A stretch of DNA of 64,000 nucleotides from Bradymonadales bacterium (GTDB lineage: Bacteria; Myxococcota_A; Bradymonadia; JAFGEP01), in assembly GCA_016931535.1 (NCBI GenBank), contig JAFGEP010000096.1, positions 104,091 to 168,090 of the forward strand, read 5' to 3'. A program made the position numbers and the translations under genes. Shown here one piece after another: positions 42,956-51,690 of this stretch. The notes below the pieces were generated by a model. The model searched no databases. It was not told the DNA's origin and worked only from the letters and a program-made list of their open reading frames with translations. How positions within the stretch are numbered: position 1 is the stretch's first letter; every line of letters begins with the position of its first letter.

Positions 42956-43039
42956 TTCATCATGCCCGCGACCACGACCCGCTGCCGGTTGACACTGGCG
43001 GAGGGGAATGGTAGATGCCCGCTGGATGAAGGGGGGGGT

Positions 43040-43112
43040 GCCAACGTAGCTCAGTCGGCAGAGCAGCGCACTCGTAATGCGCAGGTCCCCGGTTCGAATC
43101 CGGGCGTTGGCT
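43040..43112 (+). tRNA. tRNA-Thr (anticodon CGT)
   Basis: Hand-folded cloverleaf: acceptor GCCAACG/CGTTGGC, D-stem GCTC/GAGC, anticodon stem GCGCA/TGCGC with loop CTCGTAA, T-arm CCCGG-TTCGAAT-CCGGG, discriminator T. 73 nt, no encoded CCA. Confidence 0.9.
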
Positions 43113-45641: not shown

Positions 45642-48338
45642 CTAGCGAGTGAGGAGCTCTCCCAGCTGTGTTTTGACCCGATCCCGGATGGCGGGGTAGA
45701 TGTTCGGCTTGAGCTCTTCGATCTGATCGAGCAGGTGGTTGACCAGGGGGATGTCCTTGCGGAACACCGCCATGGTGACCTGTCCGATGATCAGGTCGAT
45801 GGCTTTTTCGATCTCGAAATCCTCCAGGATGGTGGCCCGATAGCGGCGTCTGAGCTCGACGGTCTTCAGGTTCTGATGTGCGGCTTTGACGCGGGCCAAG
45901 AGCTCGCGCGCCTTTTCTTGGGTAGATGGCTCCAGGTCCTCGCACCGCTGGGGGGAGTACTCCTCTTCCAGGTGGGACAACGCTCTGTCGATCTCCGCCT
46001 GGGTGGCCATCCAGTGCAGATGGAGAATCTCGAAGTCGTCAGCCTGGCGCAGGTTCCGGTAGTGCTCGGTGATGACCTCCTCCCTCTTGGCGCGAGTGGC
46101 GTGCTGGGAGGGTTTCGGGAGGAAGGAGAGTAGCCCCAGCTCCTTCAGTGCGAAGACGGCGGCGAAGGTCTGGGCGCGGGTGAGATTGGAGATTCGGGTC
46201 AAGGCGCGTAGCGAATGCTCACCACCAAGGCAGGTGGCGACAAAATGCTCCAGCTTGCCGTCCAGCCCCAGATCCTGGCAGAGGATGTCGGATCGGATCG
46301 ACAAGGTGGGATAGGAGGAGAGGTGTGGTTCCTGGATTTTTGTCATCTCGTCCCAGGACAGGGCGCCAAGCTGCCGATACAGGGGGTGAAAGCCCTTTGG
46401 AGGGGGTGAGCTGCGCAGCCCCAGCAAAGGAGGAGGGGGATCGAGGGCGAAAAGCCGGTAGGTCAGGGATCCTGCCGTGCCGAGTTCCGCGAGCAGCAGT
46501 TTGACCTTGGCCCGGTTGGCGTTTTGGAGCAAGCTGGAGTCCATCAGGCCCAGCTCGTGAATGGCGGTCTCTTCGGGGATGTTTCGCTCCGTCGCCGCTT
46601 CCCATATCTGTCTGGCCGATGCCTGGGGAAGAAGCCCCTGACCGGCCAACAAGAGGGGCAAGGAGTACTTGACGTCAACCGGCAGTCGGTAGGCGTCGGT
46701 CAGGGTGTCTGCCTGGTAGAAGAAGAACCAGCGCTGCTGATCACCAGGAGCATCGGCCACGAGCACACAGCACTGGGGCTTCCGGGCAGCCTGCACGACA
46801 ACGTCCAGCAGCTCGCTTCCGTCCGCGATCCCTTCGACCAGTGGGGGGGGCTGCAGATCCAGAACCTCCAGGAATCGATGGGCGCTCTCCAGCAGGCGAA
46901 GCTCTTCCGCCTCATCCGGCGTTGTCTCTTCCCCTTCGGCTCTCCCCTGGGCCACGGGGGTCTTGCCGGAGAGGCTGGTCGTCCTTCCTGTGGAGGCCGG
47001 CCGAGGTGTGGATTTCGTCTTGTCCAGCTCGCTGGCTGTCGGTTTTCCCGATAAGGCCGTCTGCTTCTTTGAGATCTCTTCGTGCCGTGGTGACGACGGC
47101 TCTCTGAGGGGCGCGGGGATAGCTGGCTGCGGTTCAAAGGGGACGAACCGTGCGGACCCCTCCTTGTCGTCCATCCCGGCGGTGACCGGTGACATCGGGT
47201 GCACTGGCTCCGATTCGGTCTGATCGGCGCGTGTCTCCGTAGGAGGTCCTTTTTTGGGTGATGGGATCTCCTGCGTCGGCTCGAAAGGAACGAACTGGAT
47301 TGATTCCTTTTCCTCCTGCCCTGTTGGACCTCCCTGGGAGCGGGGGGGTTCTTCCGTGGTGTCGAGAAGGTCCTCCAGGGAGACCGACTCCGGAACGGTC
47401 ACGCCGGAAATGAACGGTTGCAGCGTTGGCTTGCTCGCTCGGGATTCCCCGAAATCTGCCCTGACGGGTCGAGGGGAAGATGCCTCCTGTGCCAGCGAGG
47501 CAGGTGCTCCTGGAGTGGAAGGCGACTCCGACGGAAGGGGGGCAAGCTCGAGCCGCGGGATGGAGACCTCCGATCTCTGGGGGTCGGCACCGGGCGGTGG
47601 AGTGGATGCTGGCAATTGCGGTGAAGCGGGCTCAGAAAGTGGGGTGGGAACCGCCGCATCCAGACCGGTGCCTTCGCGGGCGATGGCAGAGGGGGTCTCA
47701 TTCTGGATCAGCTCATCCAGGGATACTTCGAGGGGCTGATCACGAGCCGGAATTCCCCGATCATCGGGTGATGGCATCTGGTCCGGACGCTTGCCTCGCA
47801 CCTGACCAGGACCGCCTGGAGGGCGGGTGACCTTGCATTTTTCGATGTCTTCCGCACGCACTCCGGTGGGAGCGGTCTGAGCGGTGGAGAGGCTTGGCTG
47901 GGGTTCTGCAAGGGAAGAGTCCTGTGCATGCGGTGCGATGCCAGGAACAGTTTGGGGGCCGGTCGTGCCTTTGGCTTCAGCTTGCTTCCCCGGCTGCCCA
48001 GAGGAAAGGGTGGTCAGAGAGGCGGCCAGCCGTCGGATGACCGTCTGGATCTGATCCGGCGCGAGGTCGGGTTGAAGGACGGCGATCCCGGCATTCCAGG
48101 CCAGGATTCTGCCTATGAACGCCTCCTGGTCTGGACCGGCTTGCAGTACGATCTTGATCTCTTGCTGGGGCGGCGGATGTTCACCGACGGAGAACAGAAA
48201 AGCTCCCATCTCCTGGCACTGCGCGAGTAGATGGCGCAACGGCTCGGCGGAGTCGAAGGCTGCGATCAGACGCGTCTCCTCTCCTGCACCTGCCGGTGCC
48301 AGTGTTGCTCGTGGGTTCCCCTCCACAGGCCTCACCAT
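45642..48338 (-). CDS. Large hypothetical protein with a Pro/Ser/Thr-rich central linker, a DUF4388-like region and a C-terminal J-domain-like helix bundle
   Basis: 898-aa ORF with coding-like codon usage and low-complexity PSTPGAP stretches. The C-terminal DFEILHLHWMATQAEIDRAL resembles a degenerate J-domain. Confidence 0.5.
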   Translation of the reverse strand: MVRPVEGNPRATLAPAGAGEETRLIAAFDSAEPLRHLLAQCQEMGAFLFSVGEHPPPQQEIKIVLQAGPDQEAFIGRILAWNAGIAVLQPDLAPDQIQTVIRRLAASLTTLSSGQPGKQAEAKGTTGPQTVPGIAPHAQDSSLAEPQPSLSTAQTAPTGVRAEDIEKCKVTRPPGGPGQVRGKRPDQMPSPDDRGIPARDQPLEVSLDELIQNETPSAIAREGTGLDAAVPTPLSEPASPQLPASTPPPGADPQRSEVSIPRLELAPLPSESPSTPGAPASLAQEASSPRPVRADFGESRASKPTLQPFISGVTVPESVSLEDLLDTTEEPPRSQGGPTGQEEKESIQFVPFEPTQEIPSPKKGPPTETRADQTESEPVHPMSPVTAGMDDKEGSARFVPFEPQPAIPAPLREPSSPRHEEISKKQTALSGKPTASELDKTKSTPRPASTGRTTSLSGKTPVAQGRAEGEETTPDEAEELRLLESAHRFLEVLDLQPPPLVEGIADGSELLDVVVQAARKPQCCVLVADAPGDQQRWFFFYQADTLTDAYRLPVDVKYSLPLLLAGQGLLPQASARQIWEAATERNIPEETAIHELGLMDSSLLQNANRAKVKLLLAELGTAGSLTYRLFALDPPPPLLGLRSSPPPKGFHPLYRQLGALSWDEMTKIQEPHLSSYPTLSIRSDILCQDLGLDGKLEHFVATCLGGEHSLRALTRISNLTRAQTFAAVFALKELGLLSFLPKPSQHATRAKREEVITEHYRNLRQADDFEILHLHWMATQAEIDRALSHLEEEYSPQRCEDLEPSTQEKARELLARVKAAHQNLKTVELRRRYRATILEDFEIEKAIDLIIGQVTMAVFRKDIPLVNHLLDQIEELKPNIYPAIRDRVKTQLGELLTR

Positions 48339-48519: not shown

Positions 48520-49239
48520 TCAGGGCGCGGCGGTTTCGGTTGATGCCGGTTCCTGCTCGGCGGGTTGAGCCGCTTCAGGCTGGTCGTCAGCGGGAGGTTC
48601 CTGCTCGGCGGGTTGAGCCGCTTCAGGCTGGTCGTCAGCGGGAGCTGGCTCCTCGGTGGGGGTCGGCTGGGCGGGAGGTTCCTGCTCGGCGGGTTGAGCC
48701 GCTTCAGGCTGGTCGCCAGCGGGAGGTGTCACCGCCGGTTGTTCGGGCAGCGCCTCTTGTGGGGTGTCCGCAGGTTCCGGCTCGACCGGCTCGCCCTCTG
48801 TGGCCGGTGGAATGATCGGGATCTCAGGTTCGGTGGACGGTTCGACTGGAGGTTGTGGTGGTGTGGGGATCTCCAGCTCGAAGGGCTGAGAGGTCGAACC
48901 TTCGAGGTCGATCGGGATTTCTCCGGGCTCTCCGGGGGTTCCCAGGGTTTGTCCGATGGCGCCCGAGACCTCGTTGGGATCGACGTAGCCGCCGCCGACA
49001 CGGCTGGCGGGGTTGCTGGAGATGAAGGCGAGGATGAGGGAGAGCACCATGAACATGAAGGCCGATCCGACCGTGAGCTTGGAGAGGAAGGTGGCTGCGC
49101 CCCGAGCGCCGAAGACGGAGTCGGAGCCGCCTCCTCCGAAGACGGCGCCCATGCCGTCACCTTTCCCCGCTTGCAGGAGGACGACCATGATGAGAAACAG
49201 GCAGTTGAGGACGAACAGTACGTACAGCGCGGCAACCAT
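48520..49239 (-). CDS. secG: Preprotein translocase subunit SecG with a long Pro/Glu-rich tandem-repeat C-terminal extension
   Basis: SecG core MVAALYVLFVLNCLFLIMVVLLQAGKGDGMGAVFGGGGSDSVFGARGAATFLSKLT + second TM. ATG confirmed at 49239. The ~150-aa tail contains three 16-aa (48-nt) repeats of PADDQPEAAQPAEQEP. Confidence 0.8.
   Translation of the reverse strand: MVAALYVLFVLNCLFLIMVVLLQAGKGDGMGAVFGGGGSDSVFGARGAATFLSKLTVGSAFMFMVLSLILAFISSNPASRVGGGYVDPNEVSGAIGQTLGTPGEPGEIPIDLEGSTSQPFELEIPTPPQPPVEPSTEPEIPIIPPATEGEPVEPEPADTPQEALPEQPAVTPPAGDQPEAAQPAEQEPPAQPTPTEEPAPADDQPEAAQPAEQEPPADDQPEAAQPAEQEPASTETAAP
48549..48725. repeat. Three copies of a 48-nt direct repeat, two adjacent and one after a 33-nt spacer, inside the secG 3' region
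   Basis: gttcctgctcggcgggttgagccgcttcaggctggtcgtcagcgggag occurs at 48549, 48597 and 48678. It encodes the repeated PADDQPEAAQPAEQEP motif. Confidence 0.85.
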
Positions 49240-49479
49240 GACCCATGCCCTTCGAGGGTTCGCTTCGCTGCCTTGCCGGACGGCATCCCAGATGGTTTTG
49301 GACGACCGTGGCAGCGGGAGGCGAACTATACCGGCCAAGGTAGAGAGACGCAATTGTTTTATGGGGGGAGTCGGTGGCGCCGGGTGGCGGCAGGACCGAG
49401 GGATCGCCGCCGCTCCACGAGCGCCGGCCATTGGTCGGTGGGTGGTTTGAGATGCCGGGGGGTGATGGGGTACAGAGGG

Positions 49480-50754
49480 CTAAGCCCCCTGGGGGCCGAC
49501 CAGCTTATCGGTCTTCATCCGGTCTACCAGGGCGGTGGGGATGGTGAGGGAGCCATCGGCGTTCTGGTAGTTCTCCAGGATGGCGACGATGGTTCTCCCG
49601 ATGGCCAGCCCGGAGCCGTTCAGCGTATGCAAGTGCTGAGGTTTCCCGTCTGGGGAGCGGTAGCGGATGTTGGCTCGACGGGCCTGGAAGGCCTCGAAGT
49701 TGCTGCAGCTGGAGATCTCGCGGTAGCAGTTCTGGCTTGGGATCCAGACCTCGAGGTCGTAGCACTTGGCGGCGGAGAATCCGAGGTCTCCGCTGCACAG
49801 GCTCACCACCCGATAGGGGAGGCCCAAAAGCTGGAGCACCCGCTCGGCGTCTGCCACCAGGGATTCCAGCTCCTGGTAGCTGGTATCGGGGTGGCTGAAC
49901 TTGACCAGCTCGACCTTCTCGAACTGGTGCTGCCGGATGAGCCCGCGGGTGTCGATCCCGTAGCTTCCCGCTTCCTTCCGGAAGCAGGGGGAGTAGGCCA
50001 CGTACTTGATGGGAAGCCGCTCTTCGTCCAGGATCTCGTCGCGGTGGTAGTTGGTGACCGGGACCTCGGCGGTGGGCACCAGGAAATAGGAGTCAACCTG
50101 GAAGCTGTCCTCGCGGAACTTGGGCAGCTGGCCGGTTCCCATCATCGAGGCCTCGTTCACCAGGAAGGGGGGCAAAATCTCCAGGTAGCCGTGTTGCTTG
50201 GTGTGCAACTCCAGCATGAAGTCGACCAGCACGTGGCTGAGTCGAGCCAGCGCCCCTTTCAGGAACGCGAAGCGGGCTCCGGTGACCTTGCCGGCGCGAT
50301 CCATGTCGAGCAACCCCAGGAGTTCTCCCACGTCAACGTGATCTCGAGGGGGGAAGTCGAACTGGCGCGGAGCGCCCCACACCCGGATGACGGCGTTGTC
50401 GGACGAGTCCCGTCCCTGGGGAACGGACTGGTGGACCAGGTTGGGGATGTACAGCAGCCGTTGCTGCAGGGTATCCACCACCTCCTTGCGCTGGTCGTCC
50501 AGCAACTTGGCGCGCGTGGATAGCTCCCTGAGCTGGTTCCTGAGCTCCAGGAACTCCGGGCTCGACTTGTCGATCGCCTTGATCCGTTCCTGGTCCTGTC
50601 GCTGTTCGAAGCGAGCCGCTTCGGCCTGGAAGATGAGATTTCTGCGGGTTTCCAGCAGGACGGCCAGCTCTTCGAAGTCGATCTCGACATGGCGGAGAGC
50701 GGTCCGTTGCCTAACCTCATCAAAGTGTTCTGTCAGGTAGTGTAGATCTAGCAT
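49480..50754 (-). CDS. serS: Seryl-tRNA synthetase
   Basis: [14 protein letters not shown] aligns with E. coli MLDPNLLRNEPDAV. Class II motifs include [25 protein letters not shown] and [15 protein letters not shown] confirmed at 50754. Confidence 0.92.
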
Positions 50755-50764
50755 GGTGTGTGTA

Positions 50765-50848
50765 TGCGAGAGGGGGGACTCGAACCCCCACAGCCTTGCG
50801 GCCACAAGATCCTTAGTCTTGCGTGTCTGCCAGTTCCACCACTCTCGC
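50765..50848 (-). tRNA. Type-II (long variable arm) tRNA, Leu-like, anticodon loop CUAAGGA reading AAG
   Basis: Reverse complement: GCGAGAG-UG-GUGGAACUGGCAGACACG-CAAGA-CUAAGGA-UCUUG-UGGCCGCAAGGCUGU-GGGGG-UUCGAGU-CCCCC-CUCUCGC-A. Architecture is near-identical to E. coli tRNA-Leu. 84 nt, no encoded CCA. Confidence 0.8.
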
Positions 50849-50931
50849 ACCCCTTCCTGCAGCGCCCATTACCACAAATGAAGACCGGCGGTCAACGGCG
50901 GTTTTTCCCCGGCCTGCGGATCGATCCGCGA

Positions 50932-51690
50932 TCAGGACCAGGCAGCCTGGATGATGGCGAGGAAGCTTTCTGCCGAGAGACTGGCACCGCCGACCAGGCA
51001 GCCGTCAATGTCGGGTTGGGCCAGCAGTTGGGCGGCGTTCTGCGGCTTGACGCTGCCGCCATACTGGATGCGCACGGTACCAGCCAGCTCGGGGGAGTAG
51101 TGTTGGGTCAAGTAGGCGCGGATGAAGGCGTGAACCTCCTGCGCTTGCTCTTCGGTGGCCGTCTTCCCGGTCCCGATGGCCCAGATCGGCTCGTAGGCCA
51201 GCACCAGGCGCTCGACCTCGGAAGCGGTCAGGCCCTCCAGACCGCCCTCCAGCTGTTGCGCCACCCTCGTCATGGTCTGTCCGGCCTCCCGTTCCTCCAG
51301 GCTCTCCCCAAAGCACAGGATCGGGGTGAGATCGGCGTGGAGGGCCGCCCGGATCTTCCGGTTGACGGTCTGGTCGGTCTCCAAGAAGTGCTGGCGCCGT
51401 TCCGAGTGGCCGACGATCACGTAGCGGCAACCGACGGCCCGCAACATGGGGGCGGAGATCTCGCCGGTGAACGGTCCCGACTCCTCCCAGTGGAGGTTCT
51501 GGGCGGCCAGCGCGATGGGATGGCCGGCCAACCGTTCGGCGAGCTGCGCCAGGTGGGTGAAGGGGGGGGCGACGACCACGTCGGCGGCCGGGGGGTCGGG
51601 AAGCCCGGCGCACAGCTGATCGACCAGGACGAAGGCCTGGGCGGGGGTGGTGAACATCTTCCAGTTTCCGGCGATGATCGGTCTACGCAT
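50932..51690 (-). CDS. tpiA: Triosephosphate isomerase
   Basis: [12 protein letters not shown], active-site [10 protein letters not shown] and [14 protein letters not shown]. Confidence 0.92.

Follow-up and report, generated by a model that had tools for sequence, protein, structure and literature searches.

What does a bacterial tRNA-Leu gene with the anticodon AAG decode, and how is a seryl-tRNA synthetase gene (serS) expressed when its start codon follows such a tRNA by only 10 nt? Both questions are raised by a locus in a 64,000-nt stretch of a Bradymonadales bacterium contig (JAFGEP010000096.1, positions 104,091 to 168,090; hereafter the window), where a type-II tRNA-Leu gene stands directly upstream of serS on the minus strand. 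The tRNA is conserved in related lineages and most likely matures to tRNA-Leu(IAG) through deamination of A34 to inosine (I34), and serS is probably transcribed together with it.

A type-II tRNA-Leu with anticodon AAG

ARAGORN located a tRNA-Leu(aag) gene at 50764-50849 on the minus strand, one of two tRNA genes in the window, and the Rfam covariance model RF00005 matched 50765-50848 end to end (model positions 1-71; 53 bits, E = 9e-11, gathering score 29). Taken as 50765-50848, the gene ends with the discriminator A73 at 50765 and encodes no CCA. The full RNA reads GCGAGAG-UG-GUGG-AACUGGCAG-ACAC-G-CAAGA-CUAAGGA-UCUUG-U-GGCCGCAAGGCU-G-UGGGGG-UUCGAGU-CCCCCC-UCUCGC-A, in which the acceptor stem (GCGAGAG/CUCUCGC) and the anticodon stem (CAAGA/UCUUG) can be read directly. 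The long variable arm (GGCC-GCAA-GGCU) marks it as type II, the 3-bp D stem with a G13-A22 pair is typical of tRNA-Leu, and the anticodon fits NAG. The 21-nt anticodon arm, CGCAAGACUAAGGAUCUUGUG, covers 50803-50823 (minus strand), and its 7-nt loop is C32-U33-A34-A35-G36-G37-A38, with the anticodon at 50812-50814 and A34 at 50814.

A first-pass annotation made from the sequence had proposed both this loop and a tRNA-Leu with anticodon AAG; the loop is confirmed from the sequence, and the anticodon is borne out by a register that two independent tools, ARAGORN and the Rfam model, share. Its picture of a cleanly folding cloverleaf almost superimposable on E. coli tRNA-Leu was overstated: a plain minimum free energy fold gave no cloverleaf and was not significant against shuffled sequences (z = -1.74), and the closest E. 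coli tRNA-Leu is 75% identical. We do not count the failed fold as evidence against a tRNA; support for the cloverleaf comes from the covariance model and from conservation.

A protein search with the window SerS returned a small clade at 62-65% identity (P0002-P0011), and contigs were retrieved for five of its members. The relative contigs come from several ENA assemblies, one JGI metagenome and one NCBI metagenome-assembled genome (MAG); three of them, shorter than 2 kb, end before the tRNA position and hence show no tRNA. On every relative contig that reaches upstream of serS, tRNA-Leu(AAG) lies directly upstream of the gene. A seventh lineage (L220), whose SecG is 66% identical to that of the window, carries this tRNA as well, with secG 133 nt behind it and no serS. 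The tRNAs of the seven lineages are 94-100% identical to each other; A34 is invariant, and a single pair in the variable arm has changed in a compensatory way, from G-C to C-G. Because AAG is present in all seven lineages from independent assemblies, A34 is not a sequencing error and a pseudogene is excluded. As judged from sequence and conservation, the window tRNA is a real and presumably functional and expressed type-II tRNA-Leu with anticodon AAG, for which leucylation by LeuRS is predicted.

Wider searches with SerS led outside this clade. A scan of GTDB species genomes gave relatives only at 57% identity or less, and none of the 60 loci scanned for tRNAs (of 80) had a tRNA-Leu upstream of serS, so that the scan is unusable for a comparison of G and A at position 34; several of these loci had tRNA-Ser downstream. 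The more distant SerS relatives P0012, P0016 and P0035 likewise have no upstream tRNA. No exact match to the window SerS was found in the contig index, and the identical protein is present in the protein collection. A transfer of serS from Firmicutes to the host, considered from the 57% identity of the Bacillus SerS, was dropped, as the proteins of Acidobacteria, Clostridia, Myxococcales and Proteobacteria all stand at 50-57%.

Probable inosine at position 34

Bacterial I34 is close to universal on tRNA-Arg(ACG) and is seldom met on tRNA-Leu(AAG), on which it was first demonstrated in Oenococcus oeni (PMC8266599). The tRNA-Leu(AAG) of Streptococcus pyogenes is fully I34-edited in vivo and is edited in vitro by the S. 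pyogenes deaminase TadA, whose substrates share the consensus YUAMGRA (Y32-U33-A34-M35-G36-R37-A38; PMC11472039). The same I34 result was obtained for S. mutans and S. pneumoniae in a 2026 study, according to which almost all bacterial tRNA-Leu(AAG) genes in GtRNAdb belong to Bacilli and no family carries AAG and GAG together (PMC13249217). In E. coli, an orthogonal tRNA with AAG in a tRNA-Arg2-type loop acquired inosine, and changes at position 32, 37 or 38 blocked it (PMC11066159).

The window loop CUAAGGA matches the TadA consensus. Compared with the positions needed in the E. coli test, it retains C32 and A38 but has G37, so that a G37-tolerant TadA would be required. Moreover, the entire 21-nt arm recurs without a single difference in a Streptococcus tRNA-Leu(AAG) at locus L152 of the metagenome scan described below, which was placed in the S. 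pyogenes/dysgalactiae group via its RadA protein. The L152 tRNA has 86 nt, or 89 with CCA, and A34 at nucleotide 35, in agreement with the 89-nt and 54-nt fragments reported for S. pyogenes (PMC11472039); the window tRNA thus bears the exact arm of an experimentally validated TadA substrate.

Codon usage points in the same direction. Among the Leu codons of about 55 open reading frames (ORFs) in the window, CUG accounts for 52%, CUC for 28%, UUG for 11.5%, CUU for 6%, CUA for 1.8% and UUA for 0.6%, giving a CUC:CUU ratio of 4.5:1. I34 pairs well with C. With such an excess of CUC over CUU, a poor fit is expected for an unmodified A34, whose only cognate codon would be a rare one and which would serve CUC badly.

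One alternative is that A34 remains unmodified, so that the tRNA would pair with CUU in Watson-Crick fashion and perhaps weakly with further CUN codons; precedents are the unmodified A34 tRNAs of Mycoplasma, of Salmonella proL mutants and, in part, of O. oeni. Editing is indeed absent from some A34 tRNAs of bacteria (PMC8266599, PMC11066159), and tblastn and Pfam searches found no TadA within the window, where the lone tblastn match (E = 0.001) lies inside an M20 peptidase and hence is not TadA. Set against the share of CUU (6% of Leu codons, compared to 28% for CUC), the identity of the whole anticodon arm with that of a proven edited tRNA (PMC11472039) and the reported I34 modification of O. 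oeni tRNA-Leu(AAG) itself (PMC11472039, PMC8266599), we consider this alternative unlikely. A-to-I editing is much better supported than direct reading of CUU, and we hold tRNA-Leu(IAG) to be most likely the mature form, with I34 predicted from the arm and the codons. TadA would deaminate A34 to inosine, and the resulting tRNA would read CUU, CUC and CUA.

The tRNA-serS junction

The serS gene (49480-50754, minus strand) encodes a protein of 424 aa with a 100% match to the NCBI entry P0001 (Pfam Seryl_tRNA_N and tRNA-synt_2b). Its ATG at 50754 opens a protein starting MLDLHYL, and the relatives begin at the same MLDL position; the identical protein with the same start is recorded in NCBI as the SerS of a Bradymonadales MAG (377-kb contig). 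Between the discriminator and this ATG lies a 10-nt spacer, UACACACACC (50755-50764, minus strand), which starts with U directly after the discriminator and holds no Shine-Dalgarno (SD) sequence. No GGAG-like site was found upstream of the serS ATG; the starts of gap, pgk and tpiA are preceded, at a distance of 10-13 nt, by GGAG-type sites. The first-pass annotation had placed the ATG at this position, 10 nt past the tRNA, and had found no SD before it; the coordinates are right and the start is conserved in the NCBI protein and the relatives, and a motif check gave the same answer on the SD.

The beginning of serS is AT-rich and weakly structured. Its first 45 nt have a GC content of 42%, against 62% for the whole gene. 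This ranks second-lowest among 410 windows along serS, and 11 other genes all have starts richer in GC (53-64%). Folding of the processed 5' end is predicted to be weak (-6.9 kcal/mol across 60 nt), with the first 11 nt unpaired. As a separate observation, codons 2 and 4 of serS (within 50740-50754) are both CUA, the rarest CUN codon in the window (1.8%), which is readable by I34; they add to the AT-rich start. In addition, an in-frame ORF that begins at a GTG within the tRNA extends into serS (49480-50850, minus strand; 456 aa), and in the relative L090 (6001-7368) a gene caller recorded a SerS of 455 aa (P0007) whose N-terminus is translated tRNA and spacer. Among SerS entries of 455-510 aa checked as possible tRNA read-throughs, P0007 was the only case, the others being Bacillus-type.

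Upstream of the tRNA, a promoter-like site at 50866-50895 (minus strand) consists of a -35 element TTGACC (50895-50890), an 18-nt spacer ending in TGG and a -10 element TAATGG (50871-50866), and ends 17 nt before the tRNA 5' end. The same arrangement, TTGAYY, a spacer of 17 or 18 nt ending in TGn and TAnnnn, is also found upstream of the tRNA in five relatives. It recurs at the second tRNA of the window, tRNA-Thr(CGT) (43040-43112, plus strand), with TTGACA at 42989-42994, a 17-nt spacer ending in TGG and TAGATG at 43012-43017, 22 nt before the tRNA. It is this conservation alone that leads us to accept the site as a putative promoter. A strict scan of 49300-51100 found no promoter-like or terminator-like site, neither between tpiA and the tRNA nor between the tRNA and serS.

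The five relatives (L081, L084, L087, L090 and L095) differ at the junction itself. Their tRNA-serS spacers are 60-79 nt long and contain a GC-rich hairpin of 11-15 bp, fold at -25 to -33 kcal/mol, and in four of the five have GGUUUGU after the hairpin, with the ATG 15-25 nt later. This hairpin looks like a leaky intrinsic terminator or attenuator, or a 5' stabilizer. With this hairpin in place, serS has no space for a promoter of its own, so that transcription reading through from the promoter of the tRNA is apparently a habit of the clade. In the window genome the hairpin spacer has been lost entirely and 10 nt remain; since nothing separates the tRNA from serS, serS would be carried on the same primary transcript.

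CCA-less bacterial tRNA precursors are cut by RNase Z after the discriminator and then receive CCA. Both window tRNAs lack an encoded CCA, and U follows the discriminator of the tRNA-Leu in the window and in every relative, which points to cleavage of this kind here. We propose that the tRNA is transcribed from its own promoter-like site, with its -35 hexamer and extended -10, with read-through from gap-pgk-tpiA as a further possible source. RNase P would cut the 5' end, and the tRNA would be freed by an RNase Z-type enzyme that cuts behind the discriminator, with CCA added thereafter. The serS mRNA would then be monophosphorylated and start about 10 nt before the AUG with a CA-rich leader, and its translation would proceed without SD pairing, aided by the unstructured leader and the AT-rich coding start. 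Co-transcription of serS with the tRNA, a very short leader and the absence of an SD are thus probable, and we infer the processing enzymes and the mode of initiation from this arrangement. Co-transcription and non-SD initiation, both suggested in the first-pass annotation, fit the anatomy, in which a promoter-like site precedes the tRNA and the ATG follows it with nothing in between. By contrast, the term leaderless, also used there, does not apply in its strict sense: the processed leader would have about 10 nt, and the only supported promoter lies upstream of the tRNA.

A truly leaderless mRNA, starting at the A of the ATG, would result if a serS promoter lay inside the 3' part of the tRNA. 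CATACA (50766-50761), 6 nt upstream of that A, has the right geometry for a -10 element, and the AT-rich, weakly structured start would suit leaderless initiation. However, no -35-like hexamer is found at 16-18 nt, a region that is the G/C-rich T arm, the final T, near-invariant in such hexamers, is missing from CATACA, the scan for promoters is negative, and the relatives have no room for a promoter between the hairpin and the ATG. An internal promoter therefore seems improbable to us.

Taken as a whole, the model of a TadA-edited tRNA-Leu(IAG) that is co-transcribed with serS and leaves it a processed short leader and a non-SD start is in our view likely. Several observations count against it. 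E. coli TadA fails to edit the S. pyogenes tRNA-Leu(AAG) (PMC11472039), so that editing here would need a TadA that accepts A35 together with G37, and some A34 tRNAs of O. oeni remain unmodified (PMC11066159, PMC8266599). The promoter-like site is missed by a strict sigma-70 scan, as its -10 element lacks the usual final T (position 6). Finally, the terminator-like hairpin between tRNA and serS in the relatives means that the coupling of the two genes is not fixed in the clade, and the 10-nt junction is seen in one MAG contig only.

The same anticodon arm in other phyla

A metagenome collection was scanned for the 21-nt anticodon arm, with either A or G permitted at position 34, and gave at least 120 matches (loci L098-L217). 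All 120 matches listed have A34 and none has G34. They comprise at least 86 distinct tRNA-Leu(AAG) sequences, which vary in their acceptor, variable and T arms, on contigs of 26-69% GC; because the scan demanded this arm, neither the true frequency of AAG genes nor the number of their origins is given by the scan alone. Exact look-up of flanking proteins placed representative loci in the Streptococcus pyogenes/dysgalactiae group (L152), Lactobacillus amylovorus, Defluviitaleaceae (Clostridia), Cloacimonadota (two loci) and Flexistipes (Deferribacterota). The presence of the arm in Bacillota, Cloacimonadota and Deferribacterota makes its distribution wider than almost all in Bacilli (PMC13249217). 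The first-pass remark that A34 is rare outside tRNA-Arg(ACG) is true of the literature, while the metagenomes show more cases. An identical AAG anticodon arm appears to occur in at least five phyla, often at the secG/leuU position, and this is probably of more interest than the window case itself.

Some of these loci bring tRNA-Leu(AAG) next to tRNA-Arg(ACG). At L148, L149, L162, L195 and L200 the two genes lie 8-97 nt apart, so that two presumed TadA substrates adjoin. The neighboring Arg arm, CUGA-CUACGGA-UCAG (with the loop UUACGGA in L200), departs from the Leu arm within positions 30-40 at 35 only, and has G37. At three loci without a nearby tRNA-Leu(AAG), L004, L048 and L093, the tRNA-Arg(ACG) has A37. 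A rule that tRNA-Arg(ACG) carries G37 wherever tRNA-Leu(AAG) exists was rejected: it holds in the five neighbor loci among the matches listed but fails in S. pyogenes, where the two loops differ at 35 and 37 (PMC11472039). The last three loci also place tRNA-Arg(ACG) close to serS. L004 and L048 have serS, two tRNA-Ser genes and tRNA-Arg(ACG), and L093 (7275-8864), which belongs to a distant SerS relative, has serS, tRNA-Ser(UGA), tRNA-Ser(GCU), tRNA-Arg(ACG), a deaminase, tRNA-Ser(CGA) and tRNA-Ser(GGA). The deaminase, of 160 aa, is TadA-type (dCMP_cyt_deam_1/MafB19-deam).

Linkage to secG and apparent replacement of tRNA-Leu(GAG)

In 31 of the 120 metagenome loci listed, tRNA-Leu(AAG) has secG as its direct upstream neighbor, both being on the same strand (for example L120, L131, L109, L140 and L148). 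In E. coli (L221), this is the place of leuU, the gene for tRNA-Leu(GAG), 14 nt after secG. Linkage with secG is seen for the tRNA of the window clade as well, but the order there is tRNA, (serS), secG. The 31 secG-tRNA loci together with the linkage in the clade support the AAG gene as the positional counterpart of the GAG gene, and tRNA-Leu(AAG) appears to replace the secG-linked tRNA-Leu(GAG). Given that no G34 version of the arm was found among the matches listed, the change would have been a switch of the whole arm and not a single transition. After editing, tRNA-Leu(IAG) would take over the role that leuU has in other bacteria. Neither of the two tRNAs in the window, the 64 kb of the genome that are visible, is tRNA-Leu(GAG), and no tRNA-Leu(GAG) occurs among the listed related and metagenome loci bearing tRNA-Leu(AAG), on which tRNA-Leu with CAG, CAA and UAG do occur; tRNA-Leu(GAG) is predicted to be absent elsewhere in the genome. 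We tentatively suggest, at somewhat below even chances, a recurrent switch across phyla, in which the secG-linked tRNA-Leu(GAG) gives way to a tRNA-Leu(AAG) with a fixed 21-nt arm module and which, in the high-GC Bradymonadales-like clade, would make IAG the sole reader of CUC (28% of Leu codons) and, in the window genome, tRNA excision the event that creates the serS mRNA.

SerRS recognizes the long variable arm of type-II tRNAs. This, and the direct abutment of the tRNA on serS, would suit a tRNA-like element that serves chiefly as a cis-regulatory serS leader, such as a mimic of a type-II tRNA that SerRS binds in autoregulation. The element, however, has all features of a tRNA-Leu including A73, and its sequence is nearly invariant. 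In L220 it precedes secG without serS nearby, and in the 31 other listed loci it follows secG, which makes adjacency to serS secondary and a chiefly regulatory role very unlikely. Last, A34 might stem from a mistake in sequencing or assembly, or from a mutation private to this genome, in what would otherwise be a tRNA-Leu(GAG) gene; the window does derive from a MAG, and the first-pass annotation had suggested comparing orthologous loci. This reading is refuted by those loci: AAG stands in seven lineages and GAG in none, all related loci carry AAG in at least six independent assemblies (ENA, JGI and NCBI), and no G34 arm is among the 120 matches listed.

Comparison with known systems

The closest known case is the TadA-edited tRNA-Leu(AAG) of Lactobacillales, matured to tRNA-Leu(IAG) in O. 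oeni, S. pyogenes, S. mutans and Lactobacillaceae. Like the window tRNA, it is type II with an encoded A34, the loop CUAAGGA and an identical 21-nt arm, and the window tRNA fits the replacement of tRNA-Leu(GAG) expected for that system (PMC13249217). The two differ in several ways. The window host is Bradymonadales-like (Myxococcota) with 64% GC and not a low-GC Firmicute, and editing in it is proposed from the likeness. The codon at stake in the window is CUC and not CUU or UUA. In addition, the window tRNA has other acceptor, D and T arms, lacks an encoded CCA and is fused to serS.

The secG-leuU unit of E. coli (tRNA-Leu2, GAG) likewise combines a CUY-reading tRNA-Leu with secG and is co-transcribed with a protein gene, and its position is taken exactly by tRNA-Leu(AAG) in the 31 listed metagenome loci. 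Its GAG, however, sits in a different arm, CUACC-UUGAGGU-GGUAG, and the order is secG-tRNA in E. coli and tRNA-serS-secG in the window. The canonical TadA substrate tRNA-Arg(ACG) shares the loop C32-U33-A34-N35-G36-R37-A38, and where the two genes adjoin the arms match at 30-40 save 35; it differs in amino-acid identity, in its type-I body and in C at 35. For the junction, the E. coli thrU-tyrU-glyT-thrT-tufB operon and mitochondrial tRNA punctuation offer parallels, as in both the excision of an upstream tRNA makes the mRNA 5' end, with a short or absent leader and no SD. Compared to these, the window has a single junction in a bacterial chromosome, its relatives keep a hairpin spacer, and processing is a prediction.

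The kind of tRNA described here is known from Lactobacillales; what is new is its occurrence in a different phylum with the opposite GC bias, and the tight tRNA-mRNA junction is specific to the window genome. To our knowledge, I34 on tRNA-Leu is the only documented bacterial step from a single-substrate TadA towards the eight-substrate eukaryotic ADAT. [quoted passage not shown] The codon setting is opposite to that of Firmicutes, since CUC is common here and UUA and CUU dominate there. For annotation, a serS ORF was run into the tRNA in one relative, and such tRNAs could pass for errors. The 10-nt tRNA-serS junction may serve as a compact natural test case for translation of an mRNA with a tRNA-processed 5' end. 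If the suggested switch across phyla holds, the extension of TadA to tRNA-Leu would be no oddity of Lactobacillales, and the tRNA in the window genome would be a punctuation mark for serS.

Neighboring genes

The window has a GC content of 64%. On its minus strand, the order of genes around the locus is a sigma-54 response regulator, rhomboid, gap, pgk, tpiA, tRNA-Leu, serS, secG, an ORF of 898 aa and a Ser/Thr kinase. The last gene of gap-pgk-tpiA, tpiA (50932-51690, minus strand; Pfam TIM, 2.3e-98), is directly upstream of the tRNA. A perfect 14-nt palindrome, GCGGATCGATCCGC, at 50916-50929 directly follows the tpiA stop codon; as it has no U-tract, it is not a canonical terminator.

The 898-aa ORF (45642-48338, minus strand) has a low-complexity N-terminal half and is annotated by NCBI with 517 aa. 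It gave no Pfam match, and a homology search returned only the ORF itself, probably because the low-complexity half dominated the word filter. The relatives have genes of 558-764 aa, without a recorded Pfam match, at the same place after secG. The secG gene (48520-49431, minus strand; Pfam SecG, 6.9e-21), downstream of serS, encodes a protein with a long Pro/Glu-rich C-terminal tail; the true start of the protein is probably the Met before VAALYVLF and not the first ATG of the ORF. The tail spans about 160 aa, abounds in Pro, Glu, Ala and Gln and has repeated PADDQPEAAQPAEQEP units, and the SecG proteins of the relatives are also long (169-214 aa).

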